Source: Dehalococcoidia bacterium (GTDB lineage: Bacteria > Chloroflexota > Dehalococcoidia > Bin125). Taken from it: DNA of 64,000 nt. The stretch is taken from the NCBI GenBank assembly GCA_022822375.1, contig JAJEBU010000101.1, forward strand, positions 5,234 through 69,233. Direction: 5' to 3'. Within the stretch, counting starts at the first letter, position 1. Each line of letters starts with the position of its first letter. The notes beneath the pieces are model-generated. The model did no database searches, was not told the DNA's origin, and worked only from the letters and a program-made list of their open reading frames with translations. This document shows, piece after piece, positions 896 to 57,001 of the stretch. A program made the position numbers and the translations under genes.

Positions 896-2824
896 ATGTC
901 GGACTCTGCAAGCATTCCCGATGCTGACATCGCCCGTGCGCTGCAACGCGCCACGGATTGGTTGATCGATCAGCAGGATCCAGCCGGATTCTGGTGGGGC
1001 GAGCTGGAGTCGAACACCTCGATCACCGCTGAGTACCTGTTGTTGACGCACCACCTCGGGATCGCCGACCGGCGCCAATGGGATGGCATCGCGCGCTACT
1101 TGCGCGGTCGGCAGCGTCCCGAGGGCGACTGGGCGCAGTACTCGGATGGTCCAGGCGACGTGTCGACGTCGGTCGAGAGTTACTTTGCGCTCAAGCTGGC
1201 CGGCGACGACCCGGACTCGCCACACATGACGCGGGCGCGAGAGTGGATTTTGGCGCAAGGCGGCATCGTCGAGGCGCGGGTGTTCACGAAGATTTGGCTG
1301 GCGTTGTTCGGCGAGTTCGACTGGGATCGCCTGCCGGCGATGCCACCGTGGATCAATCTGCTGCCGAACTGGCTGCCGATCAATCTGTATGAGTTCGCGA
1401 GTTGGGCGCGGGCGACCATTGTCGGCATCACGGTGATCATGACCTTGCGTCCGACGGCAGCGCTGCCAGCCGGTGCGGGTGTCGGCGAGCTCTGGGTGAA
1501 ACCATCAGATCGACGACGCTTCGCCGTACCGACTCCGAAGAATCTGTTCTCGTCGGCAGGAGCGTTTCTGATCGTCGACAAGCTGCTGCGGTTGCTCGAC
1601 CGCAACCACATTCGGCCATTCGAGAATCGGGCGCTGGCCTTCTCGGAGCGCTGGCTGCTCGACCGACAGGAGGCGGACGGTTGCTGGGGCGGCATTCAAC
1701 CGCCCTGGGTCTACGCGATCCTGGCGCTGCGGGCGATGGGCTACTCGCTGGACCATCCCGTCATCCGACGCGCGCTGGGCGGGTTCGACCGCTTTACCTG
1801 GAAGCGCGACGAGGCGGACGGCGAGCACGTCTGGACGGAGAGTTGCCAATCGCCCGTCTGGGATACGTGCCTGGCGTCTGTCGGGTTGCTGGATGCCGGC
1901 CTCGATCCGCAGCATCCCGCGTTGCAGTCAGCGGCCCGCTGGATGTTGAACGAGCAGGTGCTCGCTGGCGGCGACTGGCAGGTCAAGAATCCGCAGACGC
2001 CGCCGGGCGGCTGGGCGTTCGAGTTTGACAACGATGTCTACCCGGACGTCGACGACACAGCCGTGGTCTTGATGGCGCTCGAACGCATTCCGATGGACGG
2101 CCTGGAGTCGGAGCGGCAGCTGGCATTGGAGCGGGGGCTGCACTGGATGCTCTCGATGCAGTCGTCGAACGGCGGCTGGGGCGCGTTCGACATCGACAAC
2201 GACAAGACGTTTCTGGCGGACATTCCCTTCGCAGACTTCGGAGAGCTGCTCGATCCACCGACGGCCGACGTGACCGCGCACGCTCTGGAGTACATCGGTC
2301 AGCTGGGCTACCGCGGCGAGTATCCGCCGGCCAGCCGCGGGTTGCGCTTCCTCTATGCGCTGCAGGAGCCTGATGGTTCCTGGTGGGGCCGCTGGGGGGT
2401 GAACTATCTCTATGGGTTGGGCGCGGCGCTGCCGGCAATCGAGGCGTTGGGCGAGCCGATGTCGGCCCCGCCGGTCCGGCGAGCAGTCGAGTGGTTGTTC
2501 CGGCACCAGCTCCCCGACGGCGGCTGGGGCGAGTCCTGCAACACCTATCACGATCCGTCGCTGCGCGGTCTGGGGCCGAGTACGCCGTCCCAGACGGCCT
2601 GGGCGCTGATGGCGCTGATCGCCGCCGGGGAAGCGGCGCACGAGTCGGTCGGACGCGGCATTCGCTACCTGATCGATCGGCAGCGCGAGGATGGCACGTG
2701 GGACGAGACGGAGTTCACGGGAACGGGCTTCCCGCGCGACTTCATGATCAACTATCACCTGTATCGGCACTACTTTCCGCTGATGGCGTTGGGACGCTAC
2801 GCGAAGGCGCTGGCGCCGCGCTGA
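896..2824 (+). CDS. shc: Squalene-hopene cyclase
   Basis: 642 aa. The catalytic 'DVDDTAVV' (DxDDTA) motif is present, with multiple QW repeats ('QxxxGxW'-like) and class II terpene cyclase length. It is adjacent to hpnCDE. Confidence 0.95.
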   Translation: MSDSASIPDADIARALQRATDWLIDQQDPAGFWWGELESNTSITAEYLLLTHHLGIADRRQWDGIARYLRGRQRPEGDWAQYSDGPGDVSTSVESYFALKLAGDDPDSPHMTRAREWILAQGGIVEARVFTKIWLALFGEFDWDRLPAMPPWINLLPNWLPINLYEFASWARATIVGITVIMTLRPTAALPAGAGVGELWVKPSDRRRFAVPTPKNLFSSAGAFLIVDKLLRLLDRNHIRPFENRALAFSERWLLDRQEADGCWGGIQPPWVYAILALRAMGYSLDHPVIRRALGGFDRFTWKRDEADGEHVWTESCQSPVWDTCLASVGLLDAGLDPQHPALQSAARWMLNEQVLAGGDWQVKNPQTPPGGWAFEFDNDVYPDVDDTAVVLMALERIPMDGLESERQLALERGLHWMLSMQSSNGGWGAFDIDNDKTFLADIPFADFGELLDPPTADVTAHALEYIGQLGYRGEYPPASRGLRFLYALQEPDGSWWGRWGVNYLYGLGAALPAIEALGEPMSAPPVRRAVEWLFRHQLPDGGWGESCNTYHDPSLRGLGPSTPSQTAWALMALIAAGEAAHESVGRGIRYLIDRQREDGTWDETEFTGTGFPRDFMINYHLYRHYFPLMALGRYAKALAPR

Positions 2825-2915
2825 CCGCTCTGTCGGCGCGATCCGGCGATCCTCGATTCACAACGGCTACCATGTCAGATCAGTCCTACGAACCGACCAG
2901 AGGAGAGGGGGAGTC

Positions 2916-3596
2916 GTGGTGACGACGCCGCAACAGACCGACATTGAGATGCAGCAGCTCCCGCTCACACTCAACCGCGACGGACGTTCGATCGAATTGC
3001 GCCGCCTGGATGAGTCAGATGGCAACAAGCTGATCGAGTTCGGCAGCCGCCAGCCGAGCGAAGATTTGCTCTACGAGGAGCGAGATATCACCAGCGTCGC
3101 CGATGTCGGCGATTGGCTGCACGACACGGAGGCCGGGCGAATCCGCACGGTGATCGCGGAGGAGAACGGCAAGATCATCGGTTACTCGTCGATCGAGCGC
3201 GGGCGTCTGCGCTGGACGCGGCATGTGGCCGAGATTCGCGTCATGGTTGACAAGGATGTGCGACGGCTGGGATTGGGGCACGTGCTCCTGGGCCTGGCGT
3301 TCGAAGCGGCGCTGTCCGACGATGTGGCCAAGATCATTGCGCAAATGACGCCCAACCAGCTCGGCGCGCGCAAGATCTTCGAGCAGTTGGGCTTTGTTGA
3401 GGACGCGGTGCTGACCCGCCACGTCGCATCGGCCGACGGCGAGCTGCATGATCTGATTGTGATGCGCTTCGACACGGCGCAGCGCCTGATCTGCGCGGAG
3501 TGCGGACAGTATGTCCTGACTCTGATCCCGATGCAGGGCAAGCAGCTGTGCTGGTCGTGCTACGAGATGATGGACCTCGAACTGGGCGCGGGTTAG
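2916..3596 (+). CDS. GNAT family N-acetyltransferase with C-terminal CxxC...CxxC zinc-ribbon-like tail
   Basis: GNAT core ('RRLGLGHVLLGLAF') followed by 'ICAECGQ...CWSCYEMM'. A GAGGAGAGGGGGAG ribosome-binding site precedes the GTG start. Confidence 0.6.
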   Translation: MVTTPQQTDIEMQQLPLTLNRDGRSIELRRLDESDGNKLIEFGSRQPSEDLLYEERDITSVADVGDWLHDTEAGRIRTVIAEENGKIIGYSSIERGRLRWTRHVAEIRVMVDKDVRRLGLGHVLLGLAFEAALSDDVAKIIAQMTPNQLGARKIFEQLGFVEDAVLTRHVASADGELHDLIVMRFDTAQRLICAECGQYVLTLIPMQGKQLCWSCYEMMDLELGAG

Positions 3597-3665
3597 CGTC
3601 GCGCGGCTCGTGAACCGTGGACGCTGAGCCACGCCACCGATAAACAGCGATGTGAGGAGAGCGAT

Positions 3666-3905
3666 ATGTCAGAACACCGCGACCACACCTACAAGATCGT
3701 CGAGCTGGTCGGTTCCTCGCCGGACGGGGTGGATCAGGCGATCCGCAACGCGGTCTCGCGCGCGTCGGAGACGCTGAAGAACCTCGATTGGTTCGAAGTG
3801 CGCGAGATTCGCGGGCCGATCCAGGATGGCGAGATCGGCTGGTTCCAGGTCAAGCTGGGCGTGGGATTCCGGATCCTCGACCCATCTGATCTGGCGGACG
3901 ACTAG
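3666..3905 (+). CDS. Dodecin-family flavin-binding protein
   Basis: 79 aa. 'YKIVELVGSS...WFEV.EIRG...DG.I..FQVKL.VGF' matches the dodecin fold consensus. A GAGGAGAG ribosome-binding site is present. Confidence 0.65.
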   Translation: MSEHRDHTYKIVELVGSSPDGVDQAIRNAVSRASETLKNLDWFEVREIRGPIQDGEIGWFQVKLGVGFRILDPSDLADD

Positions 3906-3937
3906 TCAGATCCGCGCGAGCGAAGAACAGCGCGCTG

Positions 3938-4876
3938 ATGATCCGCGGCCCGGACGCCGGCACAGAGTCGAGCGATGCTGCCTTCGATGGCGGGCCAGAC
4001 GAGGCGCTGAGCTGGTGCGAGCGCTACTCGCGCAAGCACGGCGAGAACTTCACGGTCGTCAGCTGGTTCCTGCCGCGCGAGCTGCGGGCACCGATGTTCG
4101 CGGTCTACGCCTTCTGCCGATTCACTGACAACATCGGCGACGATGCGGGCGCGGACCCAGCCGAGCGCTTGGCGCGGCTCGACGCGTGGCAGGCCGATCT
4201 CGAGTGCGCCTTCGACGAGACACCTCCGCAGCACCCGATCAACGTCGCGTTACAGCACGTCGCACGGTCCAAACCGTTGCATGTCGACCCCTTTCGGCGG
4301 CTGATTGAGGCGAACCGGCTGGACCAACGGCAATCGCGCTATGACACGTTCCAGGACGTGTTGGCCTATTGCGATCTGTCGGCCAATCCAGTCGGCGAAA
4401 TGGTGCTGGCGCTGTGGGACGTCGACACGAGCACTGACGAGGGGCGCTATCGGATCGATCTGTCCAACGCGACCTGCACGGCGTTGCAGCTGTCGAATCA
4501 TTGGCAGGATGTGCGCCGCGATTGGCTGGACGCCGGGCGGCTCTATCTGCCGCTGGAGGATCTGCGCGATTTTGACCTCAGCGAGGACGACATCGGTCAA
4601 GGCATCGAGGATCGTCGTTGCCCCGCCGCCTTCCGCGAGATGATGCGCTTCCAGGTTGACCGCGCTGAGGCCTACTTCCGCAAGGGAGAGCGACTGCTGG
4701 ACGAGGTGCCGGATGAGTTAGCAATCGATCTGCGGCTGTTCACGGACGGCGGGCGCGCGGTGCTGCGGGCGATCGAGCAGCAGGACTACGACACGCTGAC
4801 GCGGCGGCCGCGGGTCAGCAAGCAGACGCGCGCCTGGCTGGCGTTGCGCGCCTTCGTGCAACTCAAACTACTCTGA
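3938..4876 (+). CDS. hpnC: Squalene synthase-like protein HpnC (hydroxysqualene synthase)
   Basis: 'YAFCRFTDNIGDD' Asp-rich motif of the squalene/phytoene synthase family. First of two tandem SQS-like genes before hpnE. Confidence 0.85.
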   Translation: MIRGPDAGTESSDAAFDGGPDEALSWCERYSRKHGENFTVVSWFLPRELRAPMFAVYAFCRFTDNIGDDAGADPAERLARLDAWQADLECAFDETPPQHPINVALQHVARSKPLHVDPFRRLIEANRLDQRQSRYDTFQDVLAYCDLSANPVGEMVLALWDVDTSTDEGRYRIDLSNATCTALQLSNHWQDVRRDWLDAGRLYLPLEDLRDFDLSEDDIGQGIEDRRCPAAFREMMRFQVDRAEAYFRKGERLLDEVPDELAIDLRLFTDGGRAVLRAIEQQDYDTLTRRPRVSKQTRAWLALRAFVQLKLL

Positions 4877-4881: not shown

Positions 4882-5802
4882 ATGTCGTTCCTGCGCAGCA
4901 CCATGGACCCTGAGATCGCCGAGGCGTATCGCCGCTGCCAGGCGTTCACGCGCGAGCGGGCGACGAACTTCTATGTGGCGTTTTCAGCGCTGCCGCAGCG
5001 CAAGCGGCTCGCGATCTACGCCGCGTACGCCTTTGCGGGAACGGTCGACGACGCCGTTGACGACGCCGGAACGCAGGACGAACGGTCGGCAGCGCTGAGC
5101 ACTGCTCATGGTCTGCTGCGCGCGTCTTACGAGTCGGGCGGCGAGGGGGCAGAGCCCGTCTGGCTCGCCCGCGGCTTGGCCGATGCCGTTCGCAGCTTCG
5201 ACATTCCGCGTGAACACTTCGAGGAGCTCGTGCGCGGGATGGAACAGGACCTGACCACAACGCGCTATCAGACCTGGGACGATCTGGAGCAATACTGCTA
5301 CCGTGCGGCATCCGTGATTGGCCTGGTCTGCATCTGCATCTTCGGCTACGACCGCACGCGCTCAGCAGCCGCCACTCGGACGGCTGTGGCGATGGGCAAG
5401 GCGCTGCAGATCACGAACATCATGCGCGATGTGAAGGAAGACGCGGAGCGTGGGCGGATCTACATCGCCCAGGATGATCTGGCGCGGCACGGTGTGTCGG
5501 AGGGGAACATCCTCGGCGGCGTGTACGATGCTCCGTTTCGGGCGTTGATGGCCGACTACGCGCAGCGGGCGTACGCGCTGTACCGGGAGGGCAGCGATCT
5601 GATTCCGCTGCTCGACGGACCGCGCAGCCGGGCCTGTTGCAATGGGCTGCAAGGCGTGTATCGGATGATTCTGGACGAGATCGTCGCACGCGACTACGAC
5701 GTGCTGAGCCAGCGCGTGTCGCCGTCGCGCTCGGGTCGCGTGCTGCGCCTGCTGGAGCTGTGGCTGCTCGGCGCGCTGCCGAATCTCACGCGAGTCGGCT
5801 GA
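4882..5802 (+). CDS. hpnD: Squalene synthase-like protein HpnD (presqualene diphosphate synthase)
   Basis: 'YAFAGTVDDAVDD' and 'IMRDVKEDAERGRIY' motifs of the SQS/PSY family. Position between hpnC and hpnE. Confidence 0.85.
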   Translation: MSFLRSTMDPEIAEAYRRCQAFTRERATNFYVAFSALPQRKRLAIYAAYAFAGTVDDAVDDAGTQDERSAALSTAHGLLRASYESGGEGAEPVWLARGLADAVRSFDIPREHFEELVRGMEQDLTTTRYQTWDDLEQYCYRAASVIGLVCICIFGYDRTRSAAATRTAVAMGKALQITNIMRDVKEDAERGRIYIAQDDLARHGVSEGNILGGVYDAPFRALMADYAQRAYALYREGSDLIPLLDGPRSRACCNGLQGVYRMILDEIVARDYDVLSQRVSPSRSGRVLRLLELWLLGALPNLTRVG

Positions 5803-5808
5803 CCAGCG

Positions 5809-7206
5809 GTGACGAGCGGCGCGGCCCCGATCGCAGTCATCGGAGGCGGCTTGGCCGGGCTCACGGCCGCGCTTGACCTCGCCGAAGCGGGCAGCCGCGT
5901 GGCCCTCATCGAGCGCCGACCCTTCGTCGGCGGCAAGGCCTACTCCTTCGACGATCCCAACCATCACATTCAGCTGGACAATGGCCAGCACATCACGATG
6001 CGTTGCTGCACGGCGTTCCAGGCATTGCTGGAACGACTCGGCTGCGCCGACATCGTGCGCTACCAGGACGCCCTGTCAGTCGCAGTGATCGATCCAGAAT
6101 CGGCGGGTCGGCAGGTGAGCGTGCTCGCGCGCGCGGAAGTGGGTTGGTTGGGCCGCCTTGGCCCGCGTCTGTTGCCGGCGCCGCTGCATCTGGCGCCGTC
6201 GCTGACGATGTACGACCACCTGAGCACAGTGGAGAAGGCGAGGCTCGCACTGGCGCTGGAGCCGATTCGCCGCATGAGCGAGTCGGACCGCCGCGCGCTC
6301 GACCGGCAATCGTTCGCCGACTTTCTGCTCGCGCACCAGCAGACGCCGCGGGTCATCGAGCGGTTCTGGGACCTGATCGTCCTGCCCACCTGCAACGACC
6401 GCTCGGCCGACGTGTCGGCGGCGCAGGCGATTCAGGTCTTTCAGGAGGGGTTCAGCCGAGAATCGGCGGCGGCGGACATTGGCAACTTCGTTCGCGGCCT
6501 GGGCGAGGTCGCGGAGACCGCGCTGGCGCGTCTGCGCGAACGCGGCGGCGAGGTTCACCTCAACGCCGCTGCGTCGGCGCTCACGGTTGAGGGCAAGTCG
6601 GTGACCGCGCTCCGTTTCGGGCGCGATCAGGAGCTTGAGGTCAGCGGCGTGGTCGTGGCGCTGCCGCCGAAGCAGGCGATGACATTGATTCCCGCGGGCT
6701 GGCGTCGACGCGAGCCGTTCTGGCGGCTGGGGCAGTTTGAGGTGAGTCCGATCGTCAATGTGCACATGCGCTGGGATCGACCCGTGATGCAGCGGGACTT
6801 CGTGGCCGTGCTGGACGACGATGCTCAGTTCATCTTCAACCGATCAAAACTGCACGGCTGGAGCGACGAGCACTGGATCTCCGTCTCGCTGAGCGGCGCC
6901 CACGAGCTGGCGGCTCTGCCGCAGCCGGAGATCGCAGCGCGGGTTGAGCGCGCCGTCCGACGCGCGCTTCGCCGAACGCAGGACGCCGCGCTGCTGGCCT
7001 CGCGGGTGATCAAGGAGTCTGAAGCCACCTTCCGCCCCAAGCCGGGCATGGCGTCGCACCGACTGCGGGCTCGCACGTCGATTGCCAACCTGTTCCTGGC
7101 GGGGGCCTGGACAGCGACCGGTTGGCCGGCCACGATGGAGTCGGCGGTGCGCAGCGGACACGCAGCGGCCGCGGCGGTCCTGGAGCAGGAGCATTCCCAT
7201 GCCTGA
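5809..7206 (+). CDS. hpnE: FAD-dependent amine-oxidase-like hydroxysqualene dehydroxylase HpnE
   Basis: N-terminal 'IAVIGGGLAGLTAALDLAEAG' dinucleotide-binding motif. 465 aa, directly after hpnD. Confidence 0.85.
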   Translation: MTSGAAPIAVIGGGLAGLTAALDLAEAGSRVALIERRPFVGGKAYSFDDPNHHIQLDNGQHITMRCCTAFQALLERLGCADIVRYQDALSVAVIDPESAGRQVSVLARAEVGWLGRLGPRLLPAPLHLAPSLTMYDHLSTVEKARLALALEPIRRMSESDRRALDRQSFADFLLAHQQTPRVIERFWDLIVLPTCNDRSADVSAAQAIQVFQEGFSRESAAADIGNFVRGLGEVAETALARLRERGGEVHLNAAASALTVEGKSVTALRFGRDQELEVSGVVVALPPKQAMTLIPAGWRRREPFWRLGQFEVSPIVNVHMRWDRPVMQRDFVAVLDDDAQFIFNRSKLHGWSDEHWISVSLSGAHELAALPQPEIAARVERAVRRALRRTQDAALLASRVIKESEATFRPKPGMASHRLRARTSIANLFLAGAWTATGWPATMESAVRSGHAAAAAVLEQEHSHA

Positions 7207-7594
7207 GCGTCAGCGCATCCACTCCAACCCCGAGTTCGAGCGTCGATTCGCGTATTGCCGCGCCATGCGGGTCGGTGATGTGATTCACGTCAGCGGCACG
7301 GCGGCGTCGGAGCCGGACGGCAGCGTCACGCCGGGCGGGATGGGCCCGCAGACGGAGCGATGCCTGAGCATCATCGAGCGCGCGCTCGACGATCTGGGCG
7401 GCGGCATGGCAGATGTCGTTCGCATCCGCATCTACGTCACCGATATCCACCAGTTCGACAGCGTCGCCGAACCGCTGCAGCGCGCGTTTGGGGACTCGCC
7501 GCCGACCTCGACGCTGGTGGAAGTGTCGGCGCTGGTCGATCCGGAGATGCTGGTGGAGATCGAGGCGGAAGCGATCATTGACGCAGCGGACTGA
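7199..7594 (+). CDS. RidA/YjgF (Rid) family protein
   Basis: 131 aa matching the YjgF/chorismate-mutase-like fold ('[12 protein letters not shown]...RIRIYVTD...VEVSALV'). The ATG overlaps the hpnE stop (ATGCCTGA, 8-nt overlap). Confidence 0.7.
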
Positions 7595-8093
7595 GCCCGC
7601 GTCGTTCCCGAATCTCATTGGCCGCCGCCCAGAGCTGGGACTCCGAGGCCAGCAGCTTGACCAGTTGATTGCCCGAACAGCCGATCCGCGCGGCGGTGTC
7701 GGCGCTGGAGCCGCCCGACGCGGCGAAGAGGTCCAGGAGCAGCGCAGCGCCGTTCCAGAAGTCGCGGTGTCGGGGGCCGATGCGCTGCTTGGCGGGGACG
7801 TCCGCGCGGATCGAGCGGGGCAAGATTCGTTGCAGGGCCGGCGGCGGGTGATACGCCTCGAGCGAGACAGGCGCCCGCTGTTCCAGGGCCAGGCTGCGAC
7901 GCAGACGCTGTAGGGCCTTGAGTCTGTTCTGGTGCTGCGATCGCCGCTCCGCTGCGTAGCCGACGACGCCTGACGGTTGATGTGTGAGACGCACGGCGGA
8001 GTCGGTCTTGTTGCGATGCTGTCCGCCGGGACCGGAGACGCGGAAGCGCTCGACACGGCACTGAGCCAGCAGGGCGTCGTCGGAGAGGGCCAA
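7575..8093 (-). CDS. GGQ-motif peptidyl-tRNA hydrolase domain protein (ArfB/RF-1 domain family) with C-terminal extension
   Basis: '[24 protein letters not shown]...[16 protein letters not shown]' matches the class-I release-factor catalytic domain. The preferred TTG start at 8093 is preceded by GAGGA and places GGQ about 23 residues from the N-terminus. An upstream ATG at 8159 would overlap the preceding gene by 59 nt. Confidence 0.6.
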
Positions 8094-8100: not shown

Positions 8101-9861
8101 TCAGAGCCCCTGGACGAGTCGGACGTCGCTCGGTTGTCGGGTGATGACGAAGGAGACATATTGCCAGCCGGAAATGGAGGTGTGACTCACGCTTGACGCT
8201 AGCCGGGTCAGGAGGACGAGGCCGAGGTCCTGCAACTCTTCATCGTCGGCCTGCAAGAGGTCGGGCGGCAGGATCGACTCTTCAACATCGCGTACGTCTG
8301 ATCGGTCGGTGACGACGATCTCGATCTCGTCTTCGTTGGCGGTGGCTTCGATCCGAACGGTGCGATCCGCATCGCCGTTCTCGACGATGTGGGTGAACAG
8401 TTCTTCGAGGCATAACACCAAGCGGTTGGACGGGCCGGGCTCCAGGTTGAAGCCGTTGGAGACATCGCCGCCGAAGGCGAGCACCTGCTCCAGCGATGCC
8501 ATCGACGCCTCGCCGCGCCAGCGGTAGCGTCGGCGCGGCAGCATGGCGAAGATCGCGGACACCAGGACGGCGATGACCGAGCCGAGCGCGATGGCGTTGC
8601 CGGTGATCGGCGTGAGCGCGTCGGGGATGTGCTCGAGGAACGGCAGGGCCAACTCGTCGGCGAACTCACCGCTGAATCCGCCCCAGAATCCGAGCGAGAC
8701 GATCAGCGCCGCTCTGGTGTTGAGTCCTGCGTCGACGACGGTCTGCATGCCGACGACGAAGAGCAGCAGCATGGCGACGAACGAGACGCCGCCAACCGCA
8801 GGTCCAGGTAGATCGAGCACGAAGGCGCTGAGGATCGGGAAGAAGGCCATCACGACCATGAGACCGGCGCCCCAGAGTCCGACCCAACGCGATCCGACGC
8901 CGACAACGGGCACCATGCCGATCGGGGAGGAGTAGGTCGTGTTGGGCGTGCTGCAGAACAAGCCGGCGAGCGCGTTACCGACGCCATCGGCGTTCAACGC
9001 GCCACGCACGGCGTCGTAATCGATCCGCCGGAAGTCGCGCAGGGAGACCTTCTGGATGGCGATCGCGTCGCCGACGGTCTCGAACGTGCCGGCCAGGGTG
9101 GCGATCACGAACGCGCCGAGCACGGCGAACGCCTCGCCTGAGACGGGGAATGTGGGCGCCTCCCATTCGCTGATCGGGAAGCCGACGATGGCCGCGTCCC
9201 CGGATTGGCTGAAGGACCAGTCGCCGCTGATCGCGGCGACGATGCAACCGGCGGCCAAGCCCGCGATCGGCGACCAGAGTCGGTAGCGGGCGGGCGCGAC
9301 GACCATCATCGTGACCATGACAAGAACGGAGACGCCGCCGATCAGGAGGTACGCCAGCGATCCAGCCCGCTCGGTTCCAGCGCCGTTCCACTGCTGAATC
9401 GTGAGCGGGACGATCGTGACCGCCACGCACATGACCACGACACCGCCGACCGTGGGTGTGAAGACGTTGCGAAAGAAGCGAAAGAAGCGGGCGATCAGCA
9501 TCTCTGTCGGCGCAGCTATCAGGGCCAGCGCGGCGACGAATCCGATACCCGCGAGTTCGATCGCGTCGAAGGTGGCCGCGAAGAATGCGCCCGATGTGCC
9601 CATGAACAGCATGAAGCCGGAGCCGACAGCGCCGATGCGGATCGCCTGCACGGCGGTCGACAGTCCGGCCGTGAGCAATGAGGCTGAGATCAGGAACGCC
9701 GCCTCGCCGGCGGTGATCACGTCGGCCGCCCGCAACAGAATCGGCAGCAAGATCGCGCCGGAGATGACGAACAGGGCGTTCTGCAGTCCGAGCCCAGCGC
9801 CGATCAGCAGGGGAGGGCGCTCGTTGACGTCGTAGCGCAGCGCGTGCCCCTGTTGGCTCAT
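8101..9861 (-). CDS. NCS2-family nucleobase (xanthine/uracil-type) permease fused to a C-terminal GHKL/RsbW-like ATPase domain
   Basis: 586 aa, hydrophobic N-terminal 440 aa with the NCS2 signature '[33 protein letters not shown]'. The C-terminal 140 aa '[14 protein letters not shown]...[12 protein letters not shown]...[16 protein letters not shown]' resembles anti-sigma-factor GHKL domains. Confidence 0.6.
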
Positions 9862-11330: not shown

Positions 11331-11789
11331 TCAGTCCGACTCCAGGATCGTCTTGAGCTGGCCCAGCTCTTTGCGCAGCTGGCGACGGAACATCATCTTC
11401 GATAGCGGGCGGAGCAGGGTGAACATGACGGTGGTCAAGATGTGGTCGCTGCCGGCGGTCATGGCATTGGTCACGGTCGTCGTTGATCCTGAGCGCTGCA
11501 GCGTCAACAAGCCAGTCATCGCGAACGGCCCATCGGATGACTCGATGCCCAACCGTCGACCGTCGTGGAACTCTGTGATGCTGAACGTGATCGGCGACGA
11601 TCGGCCCTCGAACTCGTAGGTTCCGCGAATCACGGTCCCGCGGCCGATCGGACCGTCTCCGACGACTTCGGAGCCTGACATGCCGTCGACCCAGTGGTCC
11701 TGGTTGCGCACGTCCGAGACGTAGGCCCAGACGTCGGCGACGTCGCGATCAATGGTGATCTCGGCGGAGGTGCTGAGACTGACCATCAC
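11331..11789 (-). CDS. SRPBCC (START/Bet v1-like, polyketide cyclase/dehydrase-like) protein, paralog 2
   Basis: 152 aa. Shares 'V..V.NQDHWV.GMS.SEVVG.G.I' with the upstream paralog. 4-nt ATGA overlap with it. Confidence 0.55.
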   Translation of the reverse strand: MMVSLSTSAEITIDRDVADVWAYVSDVRNQDHWVDGMSGSEVVGDGPIGRGTVIRGTYEFEGRSSPITFSITEFHDGRRLGIESSDGPFAMTGLLTLQRSGSTTTVTNAMTAGSDHILTTVMFTLLRPLSKMMFRRQLRKELGQLKTILESD

Positions 11790-12244
11790 AGCGCGTCCTT
11801 CAGCGCCGCTCGGAGATGCGCGATCTCCTGCCGCAGCATCCGATTCGCCACCAGGCTACCGATCGGGCGCAGCGGACCCATCATCAGCTTCATCAGACGA
11901 GCGGTCGGAAAGAGCGTGACCTCGTAGCTCATTTGAGAGCTGGTTTCATCGCCAGCGCAATCGATCACTGTCACAAACGGCGTGTGGCCATCCGTGTTCT
12001 CCCACGACACTCTCGACCGTGGCGCAAACTCCTTGACGATCATCGTCACGCGCAGTGATTGTCCACGTTCCGTGGAGGTGCCCACGATCTCTGAGCCAAC
12101 CACAATCTCTCCGCCGCCGACCACCTCCGACTCGGACATGCCAAACACCCAATGGTCCTGGTTCGGCACGTAGGACACAAAGTCCCACAACCGTTGGAGC
12201 GAGCAGTCGAACTCGGCCTCAATCTGAAACGTGGCTCCGGCCAC
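11786..12244 (-). CDS. SRPBCC (START/Bet v1-like) protein, paralog 1
   Basis: 152 aa, same length and shared motifs as 11331..11789. Tandem duplication. Confidence 0.55.
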   Translation of the reverse strand: MAGATFQIEAEFDCSLQRLWDFVSYVPNQDHWVFGMSESEVVGGGEIVVGSEIVGTSTERGQSLRVTMIVKEFAPRSRVSWENTDGHTPFVTVIDCAGDETSSQMSYEVTLFPTARLMKLMMGPLRPIGSLVANRMLRQEIAHLRAALKDAL

Positions 12245-12253
12245 ATCGGCCTC

Positions 12254-13015
12254 CTAGCGGAACAGGTCCATCTCGGCCGGACGCACCAATGCTGAATGGT
12301 CGTGTTCCTCGACGGGAATGTTGAGTCCCCGCACGACGGCGACCGGCACTGCGTCGAGCTTGTTCATCACTGGCTCGGCGGCTGAGGCGAGCTCATCGAC
12401 GATCGCCATCTCGGTCACGCGCAGGTCGTAGCCTTCGGCGTCCACCTCGCCCACGTAGGAGCGAATCGGGTTCATCCCGCTCACGCCGATCGCCACATTC
12501 ATCAGACCGTTGCGCCAGGGACGCCCGAAGGTGTCGCTCACGATCACCGGCACATCGACTTGGCCGCGCGCCACCAGACCTTCGCGAATCCGCCGCGCCG
12601 ACGCAGATGAGTCGACCGGCAACAACGTGACCGCGTCGCCGCCGCCCACGTTGGACTGATCGACGCCCGCGTTGGCGCAGACCCAGCCCTCGCGGGTCTC
12701 CGAGAGGATCAGCCCGCGCGTCATCCGCACGATCCGTTTCGACTCTTGCAGCACCAGCTCGACCGCGCGCGGATCCCGCTCCCACTCATCTGCCCACACC
12801 GTCGCAAACTGGCCAGCGGTCACATCGTCGAGCGTGATCACCCGACCTTCCGCCTTGGAGATGATCTTCTGCGTGACGACCAGTACGTCGCCTGGCTCGA
12901 GCGGCGTCTCTTGCGCGCGCAGCGCGACATCGATCAGCTCCGCCAGGTCATCGCCATCCGCCACCTCGGGGATGCCGCCGACGGCGAAGACTCGGTACTC
13001 GGAGGGAGCGGCCAT
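12254..13015 (-). CDS. cofE: Coenzyme F420-0:L-glutamate ligase
   Basis: 'VLVVTQKIISKAEGR', 'GWVCANAGVDQSN' and 'PVIVSDTFGRPWRNG' are CofE/FbiB N-domain hallmarks. 253 aa. Confidence 0.85.
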   Translation of the reverse strand: MAAPSEYRVFAVGGIPEVADGDDLAELIDVALRAQETPLEPGDVLVVTQKIISKAEGRVITLDDVTAGQFATVWADEWERDPRAVELVLQESKRIVRMTRGLILSETREGWVCANAGVDQSNVGGGDAVTLLPVDSSASARRIREGLVARGQVDVPVIVSDTFGRPWRNGLMNVAIGVSGMNPIRSYVGEVDAEGYDLRVTEMAIVDELASAAEPVMNKLDAVPVAVVRGLNIPVEEHDHSALVRPAEMDLFR

Positions 13016-13680
13016 CAGTCGACTCCCACCATTCGAACGGCGGCCTGCGTCTTGTAGCGCATGTTCATGCCGATGATCAGGGCGGTCAGGTCTTCGACGA
13101 ACTTGGACATCGAGAGCGGTCCGGCGTCGATCGGCCGTAGGTCGGGCATCTTGCCGACGAGATCGACCACGGCGTGCTTGGCCTCGTCGTCATCGGCGGT
13201 GATCAGCACATCGCCTTCCATCGGATCGGAGAGCTTCTGCAGCTTGCGCGCTGAGAGATTGTGGAACGCGCCGACGACCTTGGCGTCGGGCAGCAGCGCC
13301 TGTGCCTGCTCGGTTGCCGATCCTTCGGGCACGTCGGCGATGCCGGGCACGCGGTGTTCCATGGTCAGCGGCACAGCCGCGTCGATGACCAGCTTGGAGC
13401 CGATCGCGTCGCGCAGATCGTTGAGTGTCGCTTCGTGGCCCTCGAACGGGACGACGATGATGACGACGTCGGATTGCTCGACGACGTCGCGGTTGACGCC
13501 GCCGCCGGCGTCGGCGCTGGCGCCGGCTTGTTCGACGGCATCGCGGACGGTTTGGGCGGCTTCTTCAGCGCGCTCGATCCGCCGCGATCCGATCAGGATT
13601 CGTTCGCCCGCGAATGCGAGCCGCATGGCCAACCCAAGTCCTTCTGGTCCGGTTCCGCCGATGAAGCCAATCGTCGCCAT
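13015..13680 (-). CDS. fno: NADPH-dependent F420 reductase (F420H2:NADP+ oxidoreductase)
   Basis: 'MATIGFIGGTGPEGLGLAMRLA' Rossmann N-terminus typical of Fno/NpdG. 221 aa. Its stop overlaps the cofE start (TGATG). A longer upstream start is less likely. Confidence 0.75.
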   Translation of the reverse strand: MATIGFIGGTGPEGLGLAMRLAFAGERILIGSRRIERAEEAAQTVRDAVEQAGASADAGGGVNRDVVEQSDVVIIVVPFEGHEATLNDLRDAIGSKLVIDAAVPLTMEHRVPGIADVPEGSATEQAQALLPDAKVVGAFHNLSARKLQKLSDPMEGDVLITADDDEAKHAVVDLVGKMPDLRPIDAGPLSMSKFVEDLTALIIGMNMRYKTQAAVRMVGVD

Positions 13681-13769
13681 GCCCACTCCCATTCTGCGCG
13701 TACACTGAATCGTGCGAGACCCGCACATCATCAGGCTAGCGCCACCGAGCGAAATTTCCGATCCGCGAC

Positions 13770-14636
13770 ATGACGAGCTTGGCCGCCAGCACACCGCCCG
13801 TGATCAGGCATCCGATTGAGCCTGAGGCGGCGCCGGCCGTCCAGCTCGAGGGCGCGGGCCTGACCTATGAGTCGAAGGACGGCATTCTGGAAGCGGTCGC
13901 GCCGACCACGTTGAAGATTCGGGCTGGCGAGTTTGTGGCGCTGGTCGGACCGTCCGGCTGCGGCAAGACGACCTTGATGCGGATGATCGCAGGGCTGATC
14001 GCGCCATCGATCGGCACGGCGCAGGTGTTTGGCGACTCGCCGCGCGTCGCACAGCAGCGCAAGCGTCTGGGGCTCGTCTTTCAGGAGCCGGCGTTGCTGG
14101 CCTGGCGCAGCGTCGAGGACAACATCCGTCTGGGCCTGGAGCTGAACCCGCGCGAGACCGATACGGGCATGAATATCGAGGAGCTGATCGAGGTCGTGGG
14201 CCTCACGGGCTTCGGGCGCTATCGGCCGGCGGAGCTGTCGGGCGGGATGCAGCAGCGGGTGGCGCTCGCGCGGGCGCTGGCGATCGATCCGCCGTTGCTG
14301 TTGCTGGACGAGCCGTTTGCGGCATTGGACGAGATCACGCGGGAGCAGATGCGTTACGAGCTGCTTCGCCTGTGGGGGGTCTCGCATAACGCGCAGGAAC
14401 CGCCGCGCTCGGCGATCTTCGTCACGCACTCGGTTGCAGAGGCGGTGGCCATCTCCGATCGAGTGCTGGTCATGTCGCCGCGTCCTGGTCGGATCATCGC
14501 CGATGTGCCGATCACGACGCCGCAGCCGCGCCGTCCCGAGCACGAACATTCAGACCGCTTTATCAACAATTGCGCGATTGTGCGCGCGGCGCTGCGGGCG
14601 CCGACCACACCGGCCGTTCCCCTGGACGCGGCCTGA
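13770..14636 (+). CDS. ABC transporter ATP-binding protein (NitT/TauT nitrate/sulfonate/bicarbonate family)
   Basis: Walker A 'GPSGCGKTT', signature 'LSGGMQQRVALARAL', Walker B 'LLLDEPFAALD'. Confidence 0.85.
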   Translation: MTSLAASTPPVIRHPIEPEAAPAVQLEGAGLTYESKDGILEAVAPTTLKIRAGEFVALVGPSGCGKTTLMRMIAGLIAPSIGTAQVFGDSPRVAQQRKRLGLVFQEPALLAWRSVEDNIRLGLELNPRETDTGMNIEELIEVVGLTGFGRYRPAELSGGMQQRVALARALAIDPPLLLLDEPFAALDEITREQMRYELLRLWGVSHNAQEPPRSAIFVTHSVAEAVAISDRVLVMSPRPGRIIADVPITTPQPRRPEHEHSDRFINNCAIVRAALRAPTTPAVPLDAA

Positions 14637-14650
14637 TGTCGAGCTGAGGC

Positions 14651-15523
14651 ATGTTCTCGAACCCTGTCCGCCGGTTGGACTCTGTGGATGCGCCGTTCTC
14701 GCGGACCGGGGAGCGTCAGCGCGAACGGCTGGCGCCGCTGCCGCTGCCGAGTTGGCGTCCGCTGGCTGGCTGGGTGGCGCCGCCGCTCGTGGCGCTGATC
14801 ATCCTCGCCGTCGCGGTCGAGATCTGGGTCCGCGCCGGCGGCGTATCGGTCTGGGTGATGCCGAGACCGTCGTCGGTGCTGGATGTCTTTGTCAGCGACT
14901 TTGGGCTGTACTTCTCGGAGGGTCTGTTGACGATGGCAGTCTCGCTCGCGGGGCTAGCCGTGGGGACCGCCGCGGCGACACTGCTCGCGGCCGGCGTCGC
15001 GCACTCGCAGCTGTTGGAGCGCGCGGTGCTGCCGATTGCGATCATGATCAAGGTCACACCGGTCGTGGCGCTGATTCCGCTGTTCATCATCTGGCTGGGA
15101 CACAGCATCGAGCCGAAGATCGCGATTGCGGCGCTGATCACCTACTTCCCGGTGCTGATCAACGCCATCGCCGGCTTCCGCGACGTGGACGCACGAATGC
15201 ACGACTTCTTCCGATCGGTCAATGCGTCGACGTGGGAGATCTTTCGCCATCTGCGTCTGCCCGCGGCGGTGCCGTACCTGTTTGCCTCGCTGAAGATCTC
15301 GGTCACGCTGTCGCTGATTGGCGCGGTGGTGGCCGAGTTCTTTCTCTCGGGACAGGGCGGTCTGGGCGCGTTGATCTGGATCGAGCAGAACAATCTGCGG
15401 CTCGACCGCGTGTTTGCGGCGGTGCTGATGCTGACGTTGATCGGGGTCACGCTGTCGACCGCGGTGGTAGCGGCCGAGCGGGTGTTTTCGTGGCGTCTCG
15501 ACCAACCGAGCGCCGGCGCATAA
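14651..15523 (+). CDS. ABC transporter permease (NitT/TauT family)
   Basis: Multi-TM protein with a binding-protein-dependent transport inner-membrane-like profile. Follows the ATPase. Confidence 0.8.
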   Translation: MFSNPVRRLDSVDAPFSRTGERQRERLAPLPLPSWRPLAGWVAPPLVALIILAVAVEIWVRAGGVSVWVMPRPSSVLDVFVSDFGLYFSEGLLTMAVSLAGLAVGTAAATLLAAGVAHSQLLERAVLPIAIMIKVTPVVALIPLFIIWLGHSIEPKIAIAALITYFPVLINAIAGFRDVDARMHDFFRSVNASTWEIFRHLRLPAAVPYLFASLKISVTLSLIGAVVAEFFLSGQGGLGALIWIEQNNLRLDRVFAAVLMLTLIGVTLSTAVVAAERVFSWRLDQPSAGA

Positions 15524-15549
15524 GTTAGAGAGCAGACACAGGAGCAACC

Positions 15550-15846
15550 ATGACCACGCCCGCCTCTGATTCCGGCTCCGACGCTTCCGATCAGCAGCGC
15601 GGCAGCGAACACGATCACCGCCTGCCGCAGCAGCAGCCTCCGCCCGAAATCGATTCAGTCGTGATCAAGTTCTCCAACGATGGACTGGTGCTCGAGCTCG
15701 AGGGCGATGACGTGGACCTGGGCACTGACCTGAAGGTGCGCTGCGAGCATCGCCTGATCGCGGAGTTTCGGCGCGATGCGGTCGACGGCTGGTGGTACAA
15801 ATCGGCGGTGCTGTCTGAGCCGCGTCCGCTCGACTCGGACGCGTAG
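15550..15846 (+). CDS. Hypothetical small acidic protein
   Basis: 98-aa ORF in the 477-nt gap between the permease and the substrate-binding protein. An AGGAGCAACC ribosome-binding site precedes the ATG. No recognisable domain. Confidence 0.35.
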   Translation: MTTPASDSGSDASDQQRGSEHDHRLPQQQPPPEIDSVVIKFSNDGLVLELEGDDVDLGTDLKVRCEHRLIAEFRRDAVDGWWYKSAVLSEPRPLDSDA

Positions 15847-16000
15847 CACTGCAACCGTTGGCGCCAGTTGCCCGTTTGTGGCGGCGTGCATACGCTAGTG
15901 GCGGTCGCTATCGCCTCGGCAACCCCGTGGAAGCGGCTCCGGCTTGCCGGCCCGGCCATAGAGTGTTCCGGCCCCGTCCAGCCCAAGGAGCCAGATTCCC

Positions 16001-17038
16001 ATGTTCGCTGTGTCCCGATTGACCCGTCCGCTCGTCCTGTTTGCGATCTTGATTGCGGCGACCGCCGCGCTGTTGGCCGCAGCCTGCGGCGGCGATGACG
16101 CCGACGACGTCCTGACGATGCGCTACAGCGCGGGATTCGTCCCGCAGGCCAACCTGCCCTTCGTCGCGGTGTACGTCGCAGAAGATCGCGGCTTCTTCGC
16201 CGACGAGGGCCTGGAGGTCGACATTCAGCACGCCGGCTTCACCGGCAGCCACAAGAGCCTGATTCTGGCCGGCGAGATTGACATCACCACGCTGCCAGCC
16301 TCCGAAATGCTGCAGACGCGGGCCAACTCAGGTGCGCCGTACGTAGCCGTCATGCTCTTTGGCCAGCGCGGAGACTTCGGCTACGCCGTGCTCGACGAGT
16401 CGGGCATTTCGTCGCCTGCCGACTTTGCCGGGCGCAACGTGGGCTTCAAGGGCATTGTGCAGTCTGAGTTCCACGCGATGCTCGCCGCGCACAACCTGAC
16501 CACCGACGACATGAACATGATCGACGTCGGCTTCAATCCCGTCGTCCTCGTCGAGCAGCAGGTCGATGTCTACCCCGTCTTCCTCTCCAACGAGCCGGAC
16601 ACGTTGTCGCGCAACCTGAACCAGGACATCACCGTGTTCGAGGCGGCCGATTACGGCGTGCCAACGCTGGGCGTGGTGTATCTGGTCACTGAGGAGTTCC
16701 TGGAGGACGAGACGAACCGCGAGAAGCTGGAGCGTTTCCTGCGAGCCACCGCGCGGGCGTTTGAGTTTGCGATGGACGATCCTGCCGCGGCGATTGAGTC
16801 GACCGTGAAGTTCCTGCCGGAAGATCCGGCCCCGGACCTGGTGCATGAGCGCTTCATCCTCGATACGGAGCTGAGCAACGCGGTCAGCGACCTGACGCGG
16901 GCGAACGGTGTCGGCTGGTTCACGATGCAGCAGTTCCGCGCGTTGACGGATGTGTTGCTGGAGTACGGCGCGCTCGAACAGGACATCGACCTCGAGGCGG
17001 CGCTGGATCGCTCAGCGCTCGAGGCGGCTCATCGCTAA
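16001..17038 (+). CDS. ABC transporter substrate-binding lipoprotein (NMT1/THI5-like, NitT/TauT family)
   Basis: Signal peptide plus lipobox 'LLAAACGG'. An AAGGAGCC ribosome-binding site. Periplasmic-binding-protein-like fold partnering the upstream ATPase/permease. Confidence 0.8.
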   Translation: MFAVSRLTRPLVLFAILIAATAALLAAACGGDDADDVLTMRYSAGFVPQANLPFVAVYVAEDRGFFADEGLEVDIQHAGFTGSHKSLILAGEIDITTLPASEMLQTRANSGAPYVAVMLFGQRGDFGYAVLDESGISSPADFAGRNVGFKGIVQSEFHAMLAAHNLTTDDMNMIDVGFNPVVLVEQQVDVYPVFLSNEPDTLSRNLNQDITVFEAADYGVPTLGVVYLVTEEFLEDETNREKLERFLRATARAFEFAMDDPAAAIESTVKFLPEDPAPDLVHERFILDTELSNAVSDLTRANGVGWFTMQQFRALTDVLLEYGALEQDIDLEAALDRSALEAAHR

Positions 17039-17096
17039 CTGGGCGTCATGGTGCGTCAATGACCAGCGGGGCCGAGGCGGTCCCGCTGGAGACCAG

Positions 17097-17597
17097 CTAC
17101 CGATTGCGGACGAACTTTTCCTGCCCTGGGGTGGGCTTGTCGCCCGGGTAGTGGAGCTTCTTGAGCATGTCTCGGTGCGGGAAAATGTGGACGGCGTCCC
17201 AGCCGCAGCTCTGCTCGCAGAGTCGGCAGCCGGTGCAGTTCTTTTCGATCACGACCGCCTGGCCGAAGAAGTCGCTGGCGGAGTCGGTGTAGTCGAGCTC
17301 CAGCGCCTCGAAGGGGCAGACGTTGATGCAGAGCTCGCAGCCGGAGCCGATGCACTTGTCGGGGTCGACCTCTGCCTTGGGCCATTCCTTCTTCGCGAAC
17401 TTGCGGCAGATGTCGCCGTCGTCGTCGAGAATGCACTCGACCGGGCACACCGCGCCACAGGCGCCACAGTCGATGCAGAGCGCCGGATCGATGTAGTGGA
17501 TGGTGTTGCGCTCGCCCCAGATGGCGTTGGTCGGGCAGCGGTTGGTGCAGGCGGTGCAGCCGATACAGGTTTCAACGATCTCGTAGGCCACGGTCAA
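17097..17597 (-). CDS. Polyferredoxin-like 4Fe-4S cluster protein
   Basis: Four CxxCxxCxxxCP-type motifs ('CIGCTACTNRCP','CIDCGACGAVCP','CIGSGCELCINVCP','CTGCRLCEQSCG'). 166 aa. Confidence 0.8.
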   Translation of the reverse strand: MTVAYEIVETCIGCTACTNRCPTNAIWGERNTIHYIDPALCIDCGACGAVCPVECILDDDGDICRKFAKKEWPKAEVDPDKCIGSGCELCINVCPFEALELDYTDSASDFFGQAVVIEKNCTGCRLCEQSCGWDAVHIFPHRDMLKKLHYPGDKPTPGQEKFVRNR

Positions 17598-17728
17598 CTC
17601 CTCTGCGCTGATCGCAGTCGCCTACCAGTATATGCACGCCTCCAATCGCCGTTCAATCGGTATCGAGGGCCGCAGGTTCGCCAGAGCCTCGTATAGTGGC
17701 TTCAAGACGGCAGGGTGCAGGACGAATC

Positions 17729-19075: not shown

Positions 19076-19128
19076 TATCGTCAGTCAGCACAGGACACCG
19101 GGCGTAGTGTGAACTCGGGGAGCGACGC

Positions 19129-19566
19129 ATGACGGATGCTGCGGACGGACCGCTGGACGGGGTGATCGTGATGACCAACGGCCAGGAGGCCGAGTGGTCG
19201 AATCATCGCTCGGGGATGGATATCCAGTTTGGCGTCTCGGGCGATCTCTCAGGCTCGAGCGAGGTGTTCATGACGCGGCAGAAGATCCCGCCCGGCATGT
19301 ACTCGACGCCGCACTGGCATGTGAACTGTGAAACCGCCATCTACATCTTGCAGGGCCCCGTCGTGATGGCCTACGGCGAGCAGCTTGAGCATGTCCACGA
19401 GTGCGAATCGGGCGATTTCCTGTACGTGCCGCCGCGCGCGATTCACCAGATTTCCAACCCGCGCGAGGATCGCGACGCGGAAGTGGTCCTGTGCCGCAAC
19501 GCGGCCGAGGAGATCGTGGCGGAAGTGGACATTCCCGGCGCGCCCGGCTGCTCAGCGGCGGAGTAG
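19129..19566 (+). CDS. Cupin domain protein
   Basis: 'HWHVNCETAIYILQG...GDFLYVPPRAIHQISN' two-motif cupin signature. 145 aa. Confidence 0.7.
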   Translation: MTDAADGPLDGVIVMTNGQEAEWSNHRSGMDIQFGVSGDLSGSSEVFMTRQKIPPGMYSTPHWHVNCETAIYILQGPVVMAYGEQLEHVHECESGDFLYVPPRAIHQISNPREDRDAEVVLCRNAAEEIVAEVDIPGAPGCSAAE

Positions 19567-19610
19567 GCGAGGGACTCGCAGGGCGTTGGCGAGGGACTCG
19601 CAGGGCGCTG
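19567..19610. repeat. Tandem 2 x 22-bp direct repeat, each unit containing a 5-bp-stem palindrome (GCGAG-GGA-CTCGC). Possible bidirectional terminator or protein-binding site.
   Basis: 'gcgagggactcgcagggcgttg' / 'gcgagggactcgcagggcgctg' (21/22 identical). It exactly fills the gap between two convergent stop codons (TAG at 19564..19566 and TAG complement at 19611..19613). Confidence 0.6.
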
Positions 19611-56538: not shown

Positions 56539-56569
56539 CGTGATCGCTCATGCCCATGACACTGCTGCG

Positions 56570-57001
56570 CTATTCGCTCGAGGCGTCTTCGGTCTCGTCG
56601 GCCTCGTTGGCGGCGTCGGAGTCGTCGGTCGAGGGTTCGGGCGAGGCGCGCTCGACGAGTTCGATGTGCGCCATCAACGCACCGTCGCCGCGGCGCGGGC
56701 CGAGCTTGATGATTCTCGTGTAGCCGCCGGGCCGCTCGGCGAAGCGCGGGGCGATCTCATCGAACAGAACGCGCAGGATCTTCTTGTCCGTCAGCACCGC
56801 GCCGGCCTGGCGTCGGGCGTGGAGGTCGCCGCGCTTGCCCAGGGTGATCATTTTTTCGGCGACGGGGCGGATCGACTTGGCCTTGGCCTCCGTGGTCACA
56901 ATCGCCTCGTGGCGCAGCAGGTCGGTGACCTGGTTGCGCACCAGTGCCGATCGGTGCGACCGACTGCGGCTCAGCGCTCGCCCGCTCTTTCGATGCCTCA
57001 T
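56570..57001 (-). CDS. rplQ: 50S ribosomal protein L17 with acidic C-terminal tail
   Basis: '[23 protein letters not shown]...[15 protein letters not shown]' L17 core plus '[20 protein letters not shown]' tail. Confidence 0.95.

Follow-up and report, generated by a model that had tools for sequence, protein, structure and literature searches.

We studied a gene at positions 8101..9861 (reverse strand) of a 64,000-nucleotide stretch of Dehalococcoidia bacterium DNA (contig JAJEBU010000101.1 of assembly GCA_022822375.1), referred to here in its full length as the window. The gene encodes a permease of the NCS2/SLC23 type whose last transmembrane (TM) helix, TM14, is followed by a C-terminal domain homologous to the RsbW/SpoIIAB anti-sigma-factor kinases. 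The open reading frame (ORF) starts with ATG and is uninterrupted along its 586 codons for amino acids (start and stop were checked by translation), and the same product, identical in sequence, was found on four independent metagenome contigs. According to an earlier note on this DNA, the ORF joins an NCS2 permease to a domain of the RsbW/SpoIIAB type. That reading was borne out by Pfam, by a scan of 54 family tails, by a profile match to structure 6m36 and by AlphaFold2 (AF2) modelling with Foldseek searches, all of which agree (see below), and the four peptides that the note cited were all present in the translation; the match is far stronger than chance would give. The full-length AF2 model of the protein had a predicted local distance difference test score (pLDDT) of 88.7, a predicted template-modelling score (pTM) of 0.87 and 14 TM helices. 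In this model TM14 ends at residue 440 and the first strand of the tail, beta1, spans residues 445-451, the two being connected by a short, Arg-rich linker of 4-6 residues (juxtamembrane LPRRRY, 8524..8541, from translation and AF2). The pTM of this two-domain model suggests a defined arrangement of permease and tail. All the features of the protein given below lie, like the ORF, on the reverse strand.

The transporter body covers residues 24-440 (8542..9792) and was delimited by Pfam, profile and Foldseek comparisons as a 14-TM unit with the 7+7 elevator fold. The Pfam family Xan_ur_permease (PF00860), whose cutoff is 27 bits, scored 149.8 bits over residues 24-390 (E=1.1e-43), and a profile built from 55 family members matched UapA (E=5.5e-44), then SVCT1 and UraA, along profile positions 13-437. 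Foldseek searches with the transporter model returned first UapA (5i6c), UraA (5xls, with a target-normalised template-modelling score, or TM-score, of 0.83) and SVCT1, then SLC26 and SLC4, an order as expected of a protein with the 7+7 elevator fold. Alignment and translation located in TM8 the acidic motif E261-T-V-G-D265 (9067..9081), which is the equivalent of UapA E356/D360 and aligns with the UapA sequence 'ECIGD'; E261, G264 and D265 were invariant in the 55 family members, and the XanQ counterparts are E272 and D276. The N-terminal segment 'LRYxVDExPP' is conserved as well. The Pfam score, the 14-TM 7+7 fold and the TM8 acidic motif all agree with membership in the NCS2/NAT (SLC23) family.

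The region of TM10 that holds the NAT signature (residues 306-325; 8887..8946) was divergent, as seen in alignment and translation. The NCS2 signature claimed for the protein stood in part: the segment does align with UapA TM10 ('TPMTTFAENNGVIALTR'), but the canonical Gln-Asn pair has been replaced by Ser312-Pro313. Specifically, UapA Q408-N409-N410-G411 was aligned with S312-P313-I314-G315, the consensus of the 55 members at these positions was variable or Ser, and the signature [Q/E/P]-N-x-G-x4-T-[R/K/G] was absent from the query. Around these positions P306, N307, T308, T309 and Y310 were invariant in the 55 members, and a downstream G-V-x-S-R was conserved. The protein is an NCS2-family member by its fold and by Pfam in spite of lacking the TM10 signature. 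The substrate-specific NCBIfam models all scored under their cutoffs (pbuX, 210 vs 414; uracil permease, 49 vs 477; RutG, 26 vs 759), and the generic model NCS2_1 (NF037981; 43.5 vs 40) was the sole NCBIfam transporter model that passed. The replaced TM10 pair and these sub-cutoff scores speak against naming a particular substrate; judging from the non-canonical motif, the substrate may be other than a classical nucleobase. The TM10 sequence of the query clade (see below), T-T-Y-S-S-P-I-G, is presumably nearer to the 'SSSPN' of the ascorbate-transporting SVCTs than to the Q/E-N motif that bacterial nucleobase transporters carry, a likeness that may hint at a non-nucleobase substrate.

The tail (residues 445-575; 8137..8529) is an alpha/beta-sandwich domain of the RsbW/SpoIIAB-like, or HATPase_c_2, type according to Pfam, profile, AF2 and Foldseek, and it is predicted to be cytoplasmic from the NCS2 topology and the Arg-rich linker. 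HATPase_c_2 (PF13581) matched residues 452-560 with 39.3 bits in the full protein, over the gathering cutoff of 27.4, and with 43.5 bits (E=3.9e-11) when the tail was scanned alone. Of 54 diverse family tails scanned individually, 40 matched PF13581 and none matched STAS or any other credible competing family. A better score of the C-terminal region as STAS or another fold, which the note had named as speaking against its reading, was not found, and PF13581 was over its threshold. A profile of these 54 non-redundant tails (alignment A1, used for the AF2 tail model as well) matched Bacillus subtilis RsbW (6m36) with E=2e-9, the alignment covering positions 3-123 of the 135 in the profile, and the Mycobacterium tuberculosis anti-sigma-F factor RsbW/UsfX (8jzt, 8ih8) with E=5e-5; the remaining matches were noise. 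The AF2 model of the tail (pLDDT 86.3, pTM 0.80) showed the topology beta-alpha-alpha-beta-beta-(low-confidence loop)-alpha-alpha-beta-beta. In the Foldseek search of the PDB its top 19 matches were all UsfX, RsbW or SpoIIAB structures (E from 1e-7 to 4e-4, target-normalised TM-scores up to 0.86), followed by histidine-kinase catalytic domains. Generic HATPase_c and the NCBIfam RsbW, SpoIIAB and RsbA models gave weak matches, far under their cutoffs (E=0.004-0.15). Note that a single tail sequence searched against PDB sequences gave a YbaB-like match (E=0.08) which proved spurious, and that the family profile was needed to see RsbW. By profile and fold, the tail is homologous to the RsbW/SpoIIAB anti-sigma-factor kinases and a member of the HATPase_c_2 superfamily.

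The ATP-binding site of the tail is degenerate. We compared its columns through the HMMER alignment to RsbW and through an hmmalign alignment in which SpoIIAB was set beside 213 distinct tails of the family, and found none of the N-box (E-x-x-x-N), G1-box (D-x-G-x-G) or G2-box (G-x-G) motifs in the tail. What is left of the N-box (8377..8406, from the HMMER alignment and column counts) is an invariant pair of acidic residues: E487, aligned with the catalytic Glu of RsbW/SpoIIAB, and the preceding E486 were both Glu in 213/213 tails. The position of the Mg-binding Asn is occupied by H491 in the query and was Asn in 3/213 tails, being mostly Thr, His, Ser or an aromatic residue. The G1-box remnant, T-D-R-S-D (8296..8310, column counts and translation), keeps the Asp as D519, which was found in 61/213 tails (29%), essentially those of the query clade together with its relatives as far as about 35-45% identity; the two glycine positions are S521 and V523 in the query (D519-R-S-D-V) and were Gly in 10/213 and 31/213 tails. 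In the G2-box remnant, D-L-G-L (8218..8229, column counts), the first glycine position is D545, with Gly in 1/213 and an acidic residue in 184/213 tails, and the second is G547, with Gly in 86/213 and Ser in 119/213. The loop that stands in place of the ATP lid is acidic (11 Asp/Glu per 28 residues) and was modelled by AF2 with low confidence. Column counts also revealed a family-specific residue without counterpart in the GHKL motifs, His560 (8182..8184), which was His in 211/213 tails and near-invariant also in alignments A1 and A2.

Could the tail nevertheless be an active Ser/Thr kinase or ATPase of the RsbW/SpoIIAB type, directed at a STAS partner or at the transporter itself? The match to HATPase_c_2 over threshold, the conserved catalytic Glu and the weak matches to the RsbW and SpoIIAB equivalog models (E=0.01-0.1) would speak for it, but those same NCBIfam models scored 12-16 bits against cutoffs of 135-155, and the Asn, the G1 glycines and the first G2 glycine are nearly absent from the family. 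In addition, RsbW homologues without these motifs were kinase-negative in experiments: in Mycobacterium smegmatis the STAS partner was phosphorylated only by the RsbW homologue that retains the N, G1 and G2 motifs, and homologues of the RsbW1/UsfX and RsbW3 types are devoid of kinase activity and act through binding (PMC7693655). An active enzyme is therefore very improbable, and the description of the tail as a GHKL kinase was not supported, since the recovery of the N-, G1- and G2-boxes had been named beforehand as its test. Because the Mg-ATP-binding residues are lost throughout the 213 tails, the domain is best described, on sequence grounds, as a kinase-dead RsbW-like domain, a putative pseudokinase comparable to mycobacterial UsfX/RsbW1.

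The fusion is not a one-off and belongs to a large family. A word-indexed search gave 510 homologues, and among the 120 listed all were C-terminally extended or fragments; the architecture of ~580 amino acids was kept down to about 30-31% identity, and many homologues carry precomputed PF00860 and PF13581 annotations. An exhaustive search with the A1 profile, made against 1.84 billion cluster representatives (clusters at 50% identity), found at least 459 representatives with E<=1e-10, rising to 4780 when the limit was set to E<=1e-3. In every profile match listed the module was C-terminal, and the NCS2 body was present in 34/34 full-length representatives that carry it. When one genome per species was scanned, at least 557 fusion loci were counted. 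The 80 loci that were fetched all came from metagenome-assembled genomes (MAGs): those of the query clade, with 60-84% identity, belong to Dehalococcoidia/Chloroflexota, and the others to Acidobacteriota, Gemmatimonadota, Alpha- and Gammaproteobacteria, Latescibacterota, Nitrospirota, Acidimicrobiia, Myxococcota, Binatia and further groups. Databases name the family members 'xanthine permease XanP', 'purine/pyrimidine permease' or 'solute carrier family 23 protein'. We found no publication on an NCS2 or nucleobase permease joined to an anti-sigma, HATPase_c_2 or GHKL domain, and the paper on NAT/NCS2 classification (PMC6308229) mentions no extra domain. The architecture is already detectable in Pfam domain tables and is, as far as we found, uncharacterised and misannotated as xanthine/uracil permease.

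These data also bear on the idea that a separate permease gene and a small RsbW-like gene were fused by an error of assembly or a frameshift. Nothing specific favours it apart from the short 'stand-alone' representatives in the protein database, which numbered 105 and of which most start within TM13/14. Two such tails were inspected and both proved artefacts themselves. One (locus L091) is a full-length gene broken by three frameshifts, which the database lists as a 144-amino-acid 'stand-alone' protein because the gene is split over frames; the other (L090) sits on a chimeric mini-scaffold of 1.1 kb composed of three gene fragments. At L091 the gene runs through four reading-frame segments (2693-4435; frames 2, 3, 1 and 2), and it is either a pseudogene or affected by long-read indel errors. 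Against an artefact stand the four independent contigs and the ~580-amino-acid architecture of more than 200 homologues from many phyla; with an uninterrupted ORF conserved across genomes we consider the artefact hardly conceivable and in effect refuted.

Other observations concern the copies and the hosts of the fusion. At 11 loci, including L024, L030, L032, L071 (with three), L078 and L079, two or three paralogous fusion permeases lie in tandem or within a few kb, which suggests lineage-specific expansion; heterodimers may be possible. Many host MAGs (loci L020, L026, L029, L030, L049, L053, L063, L066, L076, L083 and L085) bear names like those of published sponge-symbiont bins, such as SB066x_bin, COS4_bin, RHO1/RHO3_bin, APA_bin and 'Candidatus Spongiisociaceae'; judging from these isolate names, the microbiomes of sponges may be enriched in this family.

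We searched the surroundings of the permease for components of a partner-switching system. The 64 kb of the window contained no STAS-like ORF, no PP2C gene and no second RsbW-like ORF, and no STAS, PP2C or sigma gene was found within 10 kb of the permease in the window or in the query clade. When 89 loci were scanned with a hidden Markov model (HMM), no more than 9 genomes had a STAS gene within 10 kb. In four of the nine the distance to the permease was at most 1.5 kb, an enrichment by position that is marginal (binomial p about 0.03) and concerns 4 of 83 family loci (~5%), and the STAS gene never had the orientation of the permease: at L007 the genes are convergent with a 4-bp overlap, at L050 they are divergent and 131 bp apart, at L046 the distance is 1.4 kb, and the fourth case is L005. 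The homologue P0061 has a convergent STAS gene of 112 codons that overlaps the 3' end of the permease, and the homologue P0042 (L005) has, at 595 bp, a divergent cluster with STAS, response-regulator-SpoIIE (PP2C) and stand-alone RsbW-like genes. The P0042 cluster (L005/L006, 2681-7406) encodes a 414-amino-acid protein whose N-terminal STAS domain is followed by a long, uncharacterised C-terminal stretch, the permease and ATPase of an ABC transporter, the response-regulator-SpoIIE (PP2C) phosphatase and an RsbW-like kinase of 139 amino acids. These two early examples looked promising, but in the systematic HMM scan STAS/PP2C adjacency did not hold up as a trait of the family. All-against-all clustering of the ORFs within 5 kb recovered only the synteny of the query clade and the tandem permease paralogues, and in a census, by Pfam family, of the 107 proteins that flank the permease at 60 loci no family occurred more than four times, the top one being Xan_ur_permease itself. 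A conserved, genomically linked partner-switching system is not supported. The same applies to the proposal of a new coupling of transporter to partner switching: with no STAS, PP2C or second RsbW-like gene in the window and none conserved beside family members, transporter-to-sigma-factor coupling is not supported by present evidence.

Most likely, then, the tail serves to regulate or dimerise the transporter, and a sigma-factor switch is the less likely function. In the structures of UapA and UraA, the dimer interface of NCS2 proteins lies within the gate domain. In the AF2 model beta1 of the tail starts 4 residues past TM14, and L457 and F463, among the few tail residues conserved in at least 80% of sequences, are both on alpha1. 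In the homodimers of RsbW/SpoIIAB the subunits meet through beta1 and alpha1, and their beta1 strands make up a cross beta-sheet (PMC7340262); NCS2 transporters are probably homodimers with a core and a gate domain, the latter made of TMs 5-7 and 12-14 (PMC6308229). SLC26 proteins share the 7+7 fold and add to it a regulatory STAS domain (PMC6497670). We propose that the kinase-dead tail would act in cis as a protein-protein interaction module, because the module is always fused C-terminally to an NCS2 body and the apparent stand-alone copies are artefactual. It would homodimerise in the manner of RsbW through beta1 and alpha1, below the gate-domain dimer interface of the transporter; the beta1/alpha1 pairs would come to lie side by side under the dimer axis, given the gate-domain dimer, the short linker from TM14 and an interface of the RsbW type. 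Such a tail dimer would stabilise the transporter dimer, gate the elevator movement, or both, a role parallel to that of STAS in the sister family SLC26/SulP. By this analogy we see about an even chance that the tail is a cytoplasmic dimerisation/regulatory module, which would pair as RsbW does and thereby stabilise or gate the dimeric transporter.

Several points weigh against this proposal. The roles in dimerisation and gating are argued from analogy; a purely architectural role leaves the invariant E486, E487 and H560 unexplained, and the Glu-Glu pair, which includes the former catalytic base, together with the His points to a specific chemical or binding function. The weak enrichment of STAS genes near the permease may indicate an external partner in some lineages, and a partner may be encoded elsewhere in the genome. 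Because the Glu-Glu pair and the His are left without explanation, we kept two further possibilities alive, one with an external partner and one with a ligand. In the former the protein would be a transceptor, or partner-switching receptor, whose tethered tail binds a STAS antagonist or a sigma factor encoded elsewhere, depending on the transport state. This would couple substrate availability to transcription; it agrees with the closest structural relatives of the tail, whose binding of sigma F and STAS proteins needs no kinase activity, with the invariance of the former catalytic Glu, which in RsbW-type kinases faces the serine of the STAS protein, and with the STAS genes next to the permease in the four genomes mentioned above. 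However, neither the window nor the query clade has a candidate partner gene near the permease, the nearby STAS genes are confined to few loci and never co-oriented, the census found no recurrent partner family, and the cluster of L005 already owns an RsbW-like kinase, so that its adjacency may be coincidental. We rate such a receptor as rather unlikely, and as still more doubtful its specific form in which the tail would be a membrane-anchored anti-sigma factor or anti-anti-sigma sink that catches or releases its partner with the conformational cycle of the transporter. If that form were real, the 7+7 elevator superfamily would have independently recruited both halves of the partner-switching system, STAS for SulP/SLC26 and RsbW for the present NCS2 clade, with a direct link from solute flux to transcription.

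The ligand-based possibility is that the remnant Bergerat pocket binds a small molecule without hydrolysing it, as an allosteric sensor that would feed back on transport by trans-inhibition. E486, E487 and H560 would line the pocket, in the query clade along with the adenine-contacting Asp519 and His491; candidate ligands are purines, nucleotides and metals. The invariant polar residues on the N-box helix, kept while the phosphate- and Mg-binding residues were lost, would fit such a sensor, as would the retention of the G1 Asp throughout the query clade (61 sequences), and a regulatory logic is available for an importer of the nucleobase type. On the other hand, the G1 Asp is missing in 71% of the family, the lid and the G2 glycines have been exchanged for acidic residues or Ser, and no precedent is known among HATPase_c_2 domains, all of which makes ligand sensing distinctly unlikely in our estimate. 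Regulation or dimerisation of the transporter in cis remains our preferred reading.

The genes next to the permease in the window and in the query clade are a divergent alpha/beta-hydrolase gene, an RF-1-domain (ArfB-like) gene, RidA and squalene/hopanoid genes. The RF-1-domain gene, by position 7575-8093 (or 8159) on the reverse strand, encodes an ArfB-like peptidyl-tRNA hydrolase and begins 8 bp past the permease stop or, counted from the upstream ATG, overlaps the permease by 59 bp; its pairing with the permease was seen at ~9 loci of the query clade and nowhere else in the family. The squalene/hopanoid cluster adjoins the permease at about 4882-7206 (forward strand) and further upstream in the window, and at 12656-20061 in locus L001. 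It consists of two SQS_PSY genes (HpnC/HpnD-like) and genes for an HpnE-like amine oxidase, a squalene-hopene cyclase and a polyprenyl synthase, is accompanied by dodecin and GNAT genes, and is syntenic in relatives at 60% identity. Just past the alpha/beta-hydrolase gene (11331-13015, reverse strand, in the window; 6182-8531 in L001) there are F420_oxidored/NPD-like and F420_ligase/CofE-like genes as well as two tandem SRPBCC (Polyketide_cyc2) paralogues. Farther away, the interval 56001-60000 of the window had an AT skew of -0.19 to -0.22, markedly negative relative to the rest of the window, with unchanged GC content.

NCS2/SLC23 proteins are the textbook 'bare' elevator transporters, and a folded cytoplasmic regulatory domain is a hallmark of their SLC26 (STAS) and SLC4 cousins. 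The query resembles UapA, XanQ, UraA and SVCT1 in its PF00860 match, its 14-TM 7+7 fold and its TM8 E-x-x-G-D motif, and these are the best matches for residues 13-440; unlike the query, the characterised proteins of this group have no folded C-terminal domain, and where UapA-type transporters have the Gln/Glu-Asn pair in TM10 the query has S312-P313. With SLC26/SulP it shares the 7+7 elevator superfamily (Foldseek matches; PMC6497670) and the design of a cytoplasmic alpha/beta domain of ~130 amino acids placed directly on TM14. The appended folds of both come from the bacterial partner-switching toolkit, but the SLC26/SulP tail is STAS, the anti-anti-sigma partner, whereas that of the query is RsbW, the anti-sigma partner, with a STAS signal in 0/54 tails. 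This parallel is an analogy of design and not family membership.

As for the tail, its nearest functional analogues are the kinase-negative anti-sigma factors UsfX/RsbW1, which were the top Foldseek matches (8ih8, 8jzt), lack the N-box Asn as the tail does, and act without phosphotransfer, as the tail would too. UsfX, however, is a soluble protein of about 140 amino acids, transcribed together with sigF and provided with STAS antagonists of its own, whereas the query tail is tethered to a transporter with no sigma or STAS gene nearby. The homology to RsbW/SpoIIAB extends over nearly the whole domain (6m36) with the same beta-alpha-alpha-beta-beta-lid-alpha-beta-beta topology and the conserved catalytic Glu, but the tail family has lost the Asn of the N-box as well as the glycines of G1 and G2, and the equivalog scores are far below cutoffs. 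Proteins of the Rv1364c type (RsbU-RsbW-STAS; Foldseek match 3ke6) likewise hold an RsbW-like domain inside a larger polypeptide (PMC7693655); they are fusions of partner-switching components with each other and are kinase-active, in contrast to the query, which is a fusion with a membrane transporter and has no kinase motifs left.

The family thus represents a large multi-phylum clade, almost all of it in uncultured bacteria, with a conserved anti-sigma-fold pseudokinase on TM14. For signalling biology it offers a new context for kinase-dead RsbW-like domains, in which the invariant Glu-Glu pair and His are ready targets for mutagenesis, and its divergent TM10 motif is a warning against the current annotation as xanthine/uracil permeases. 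For transporter biology it would provide a natural system in which an elevator mechanism is controlled by a cytoplasmic dimeric module. The existence of a large SLC23-type clade with such a pseudokinase would surprise specialists and can be tested directly.

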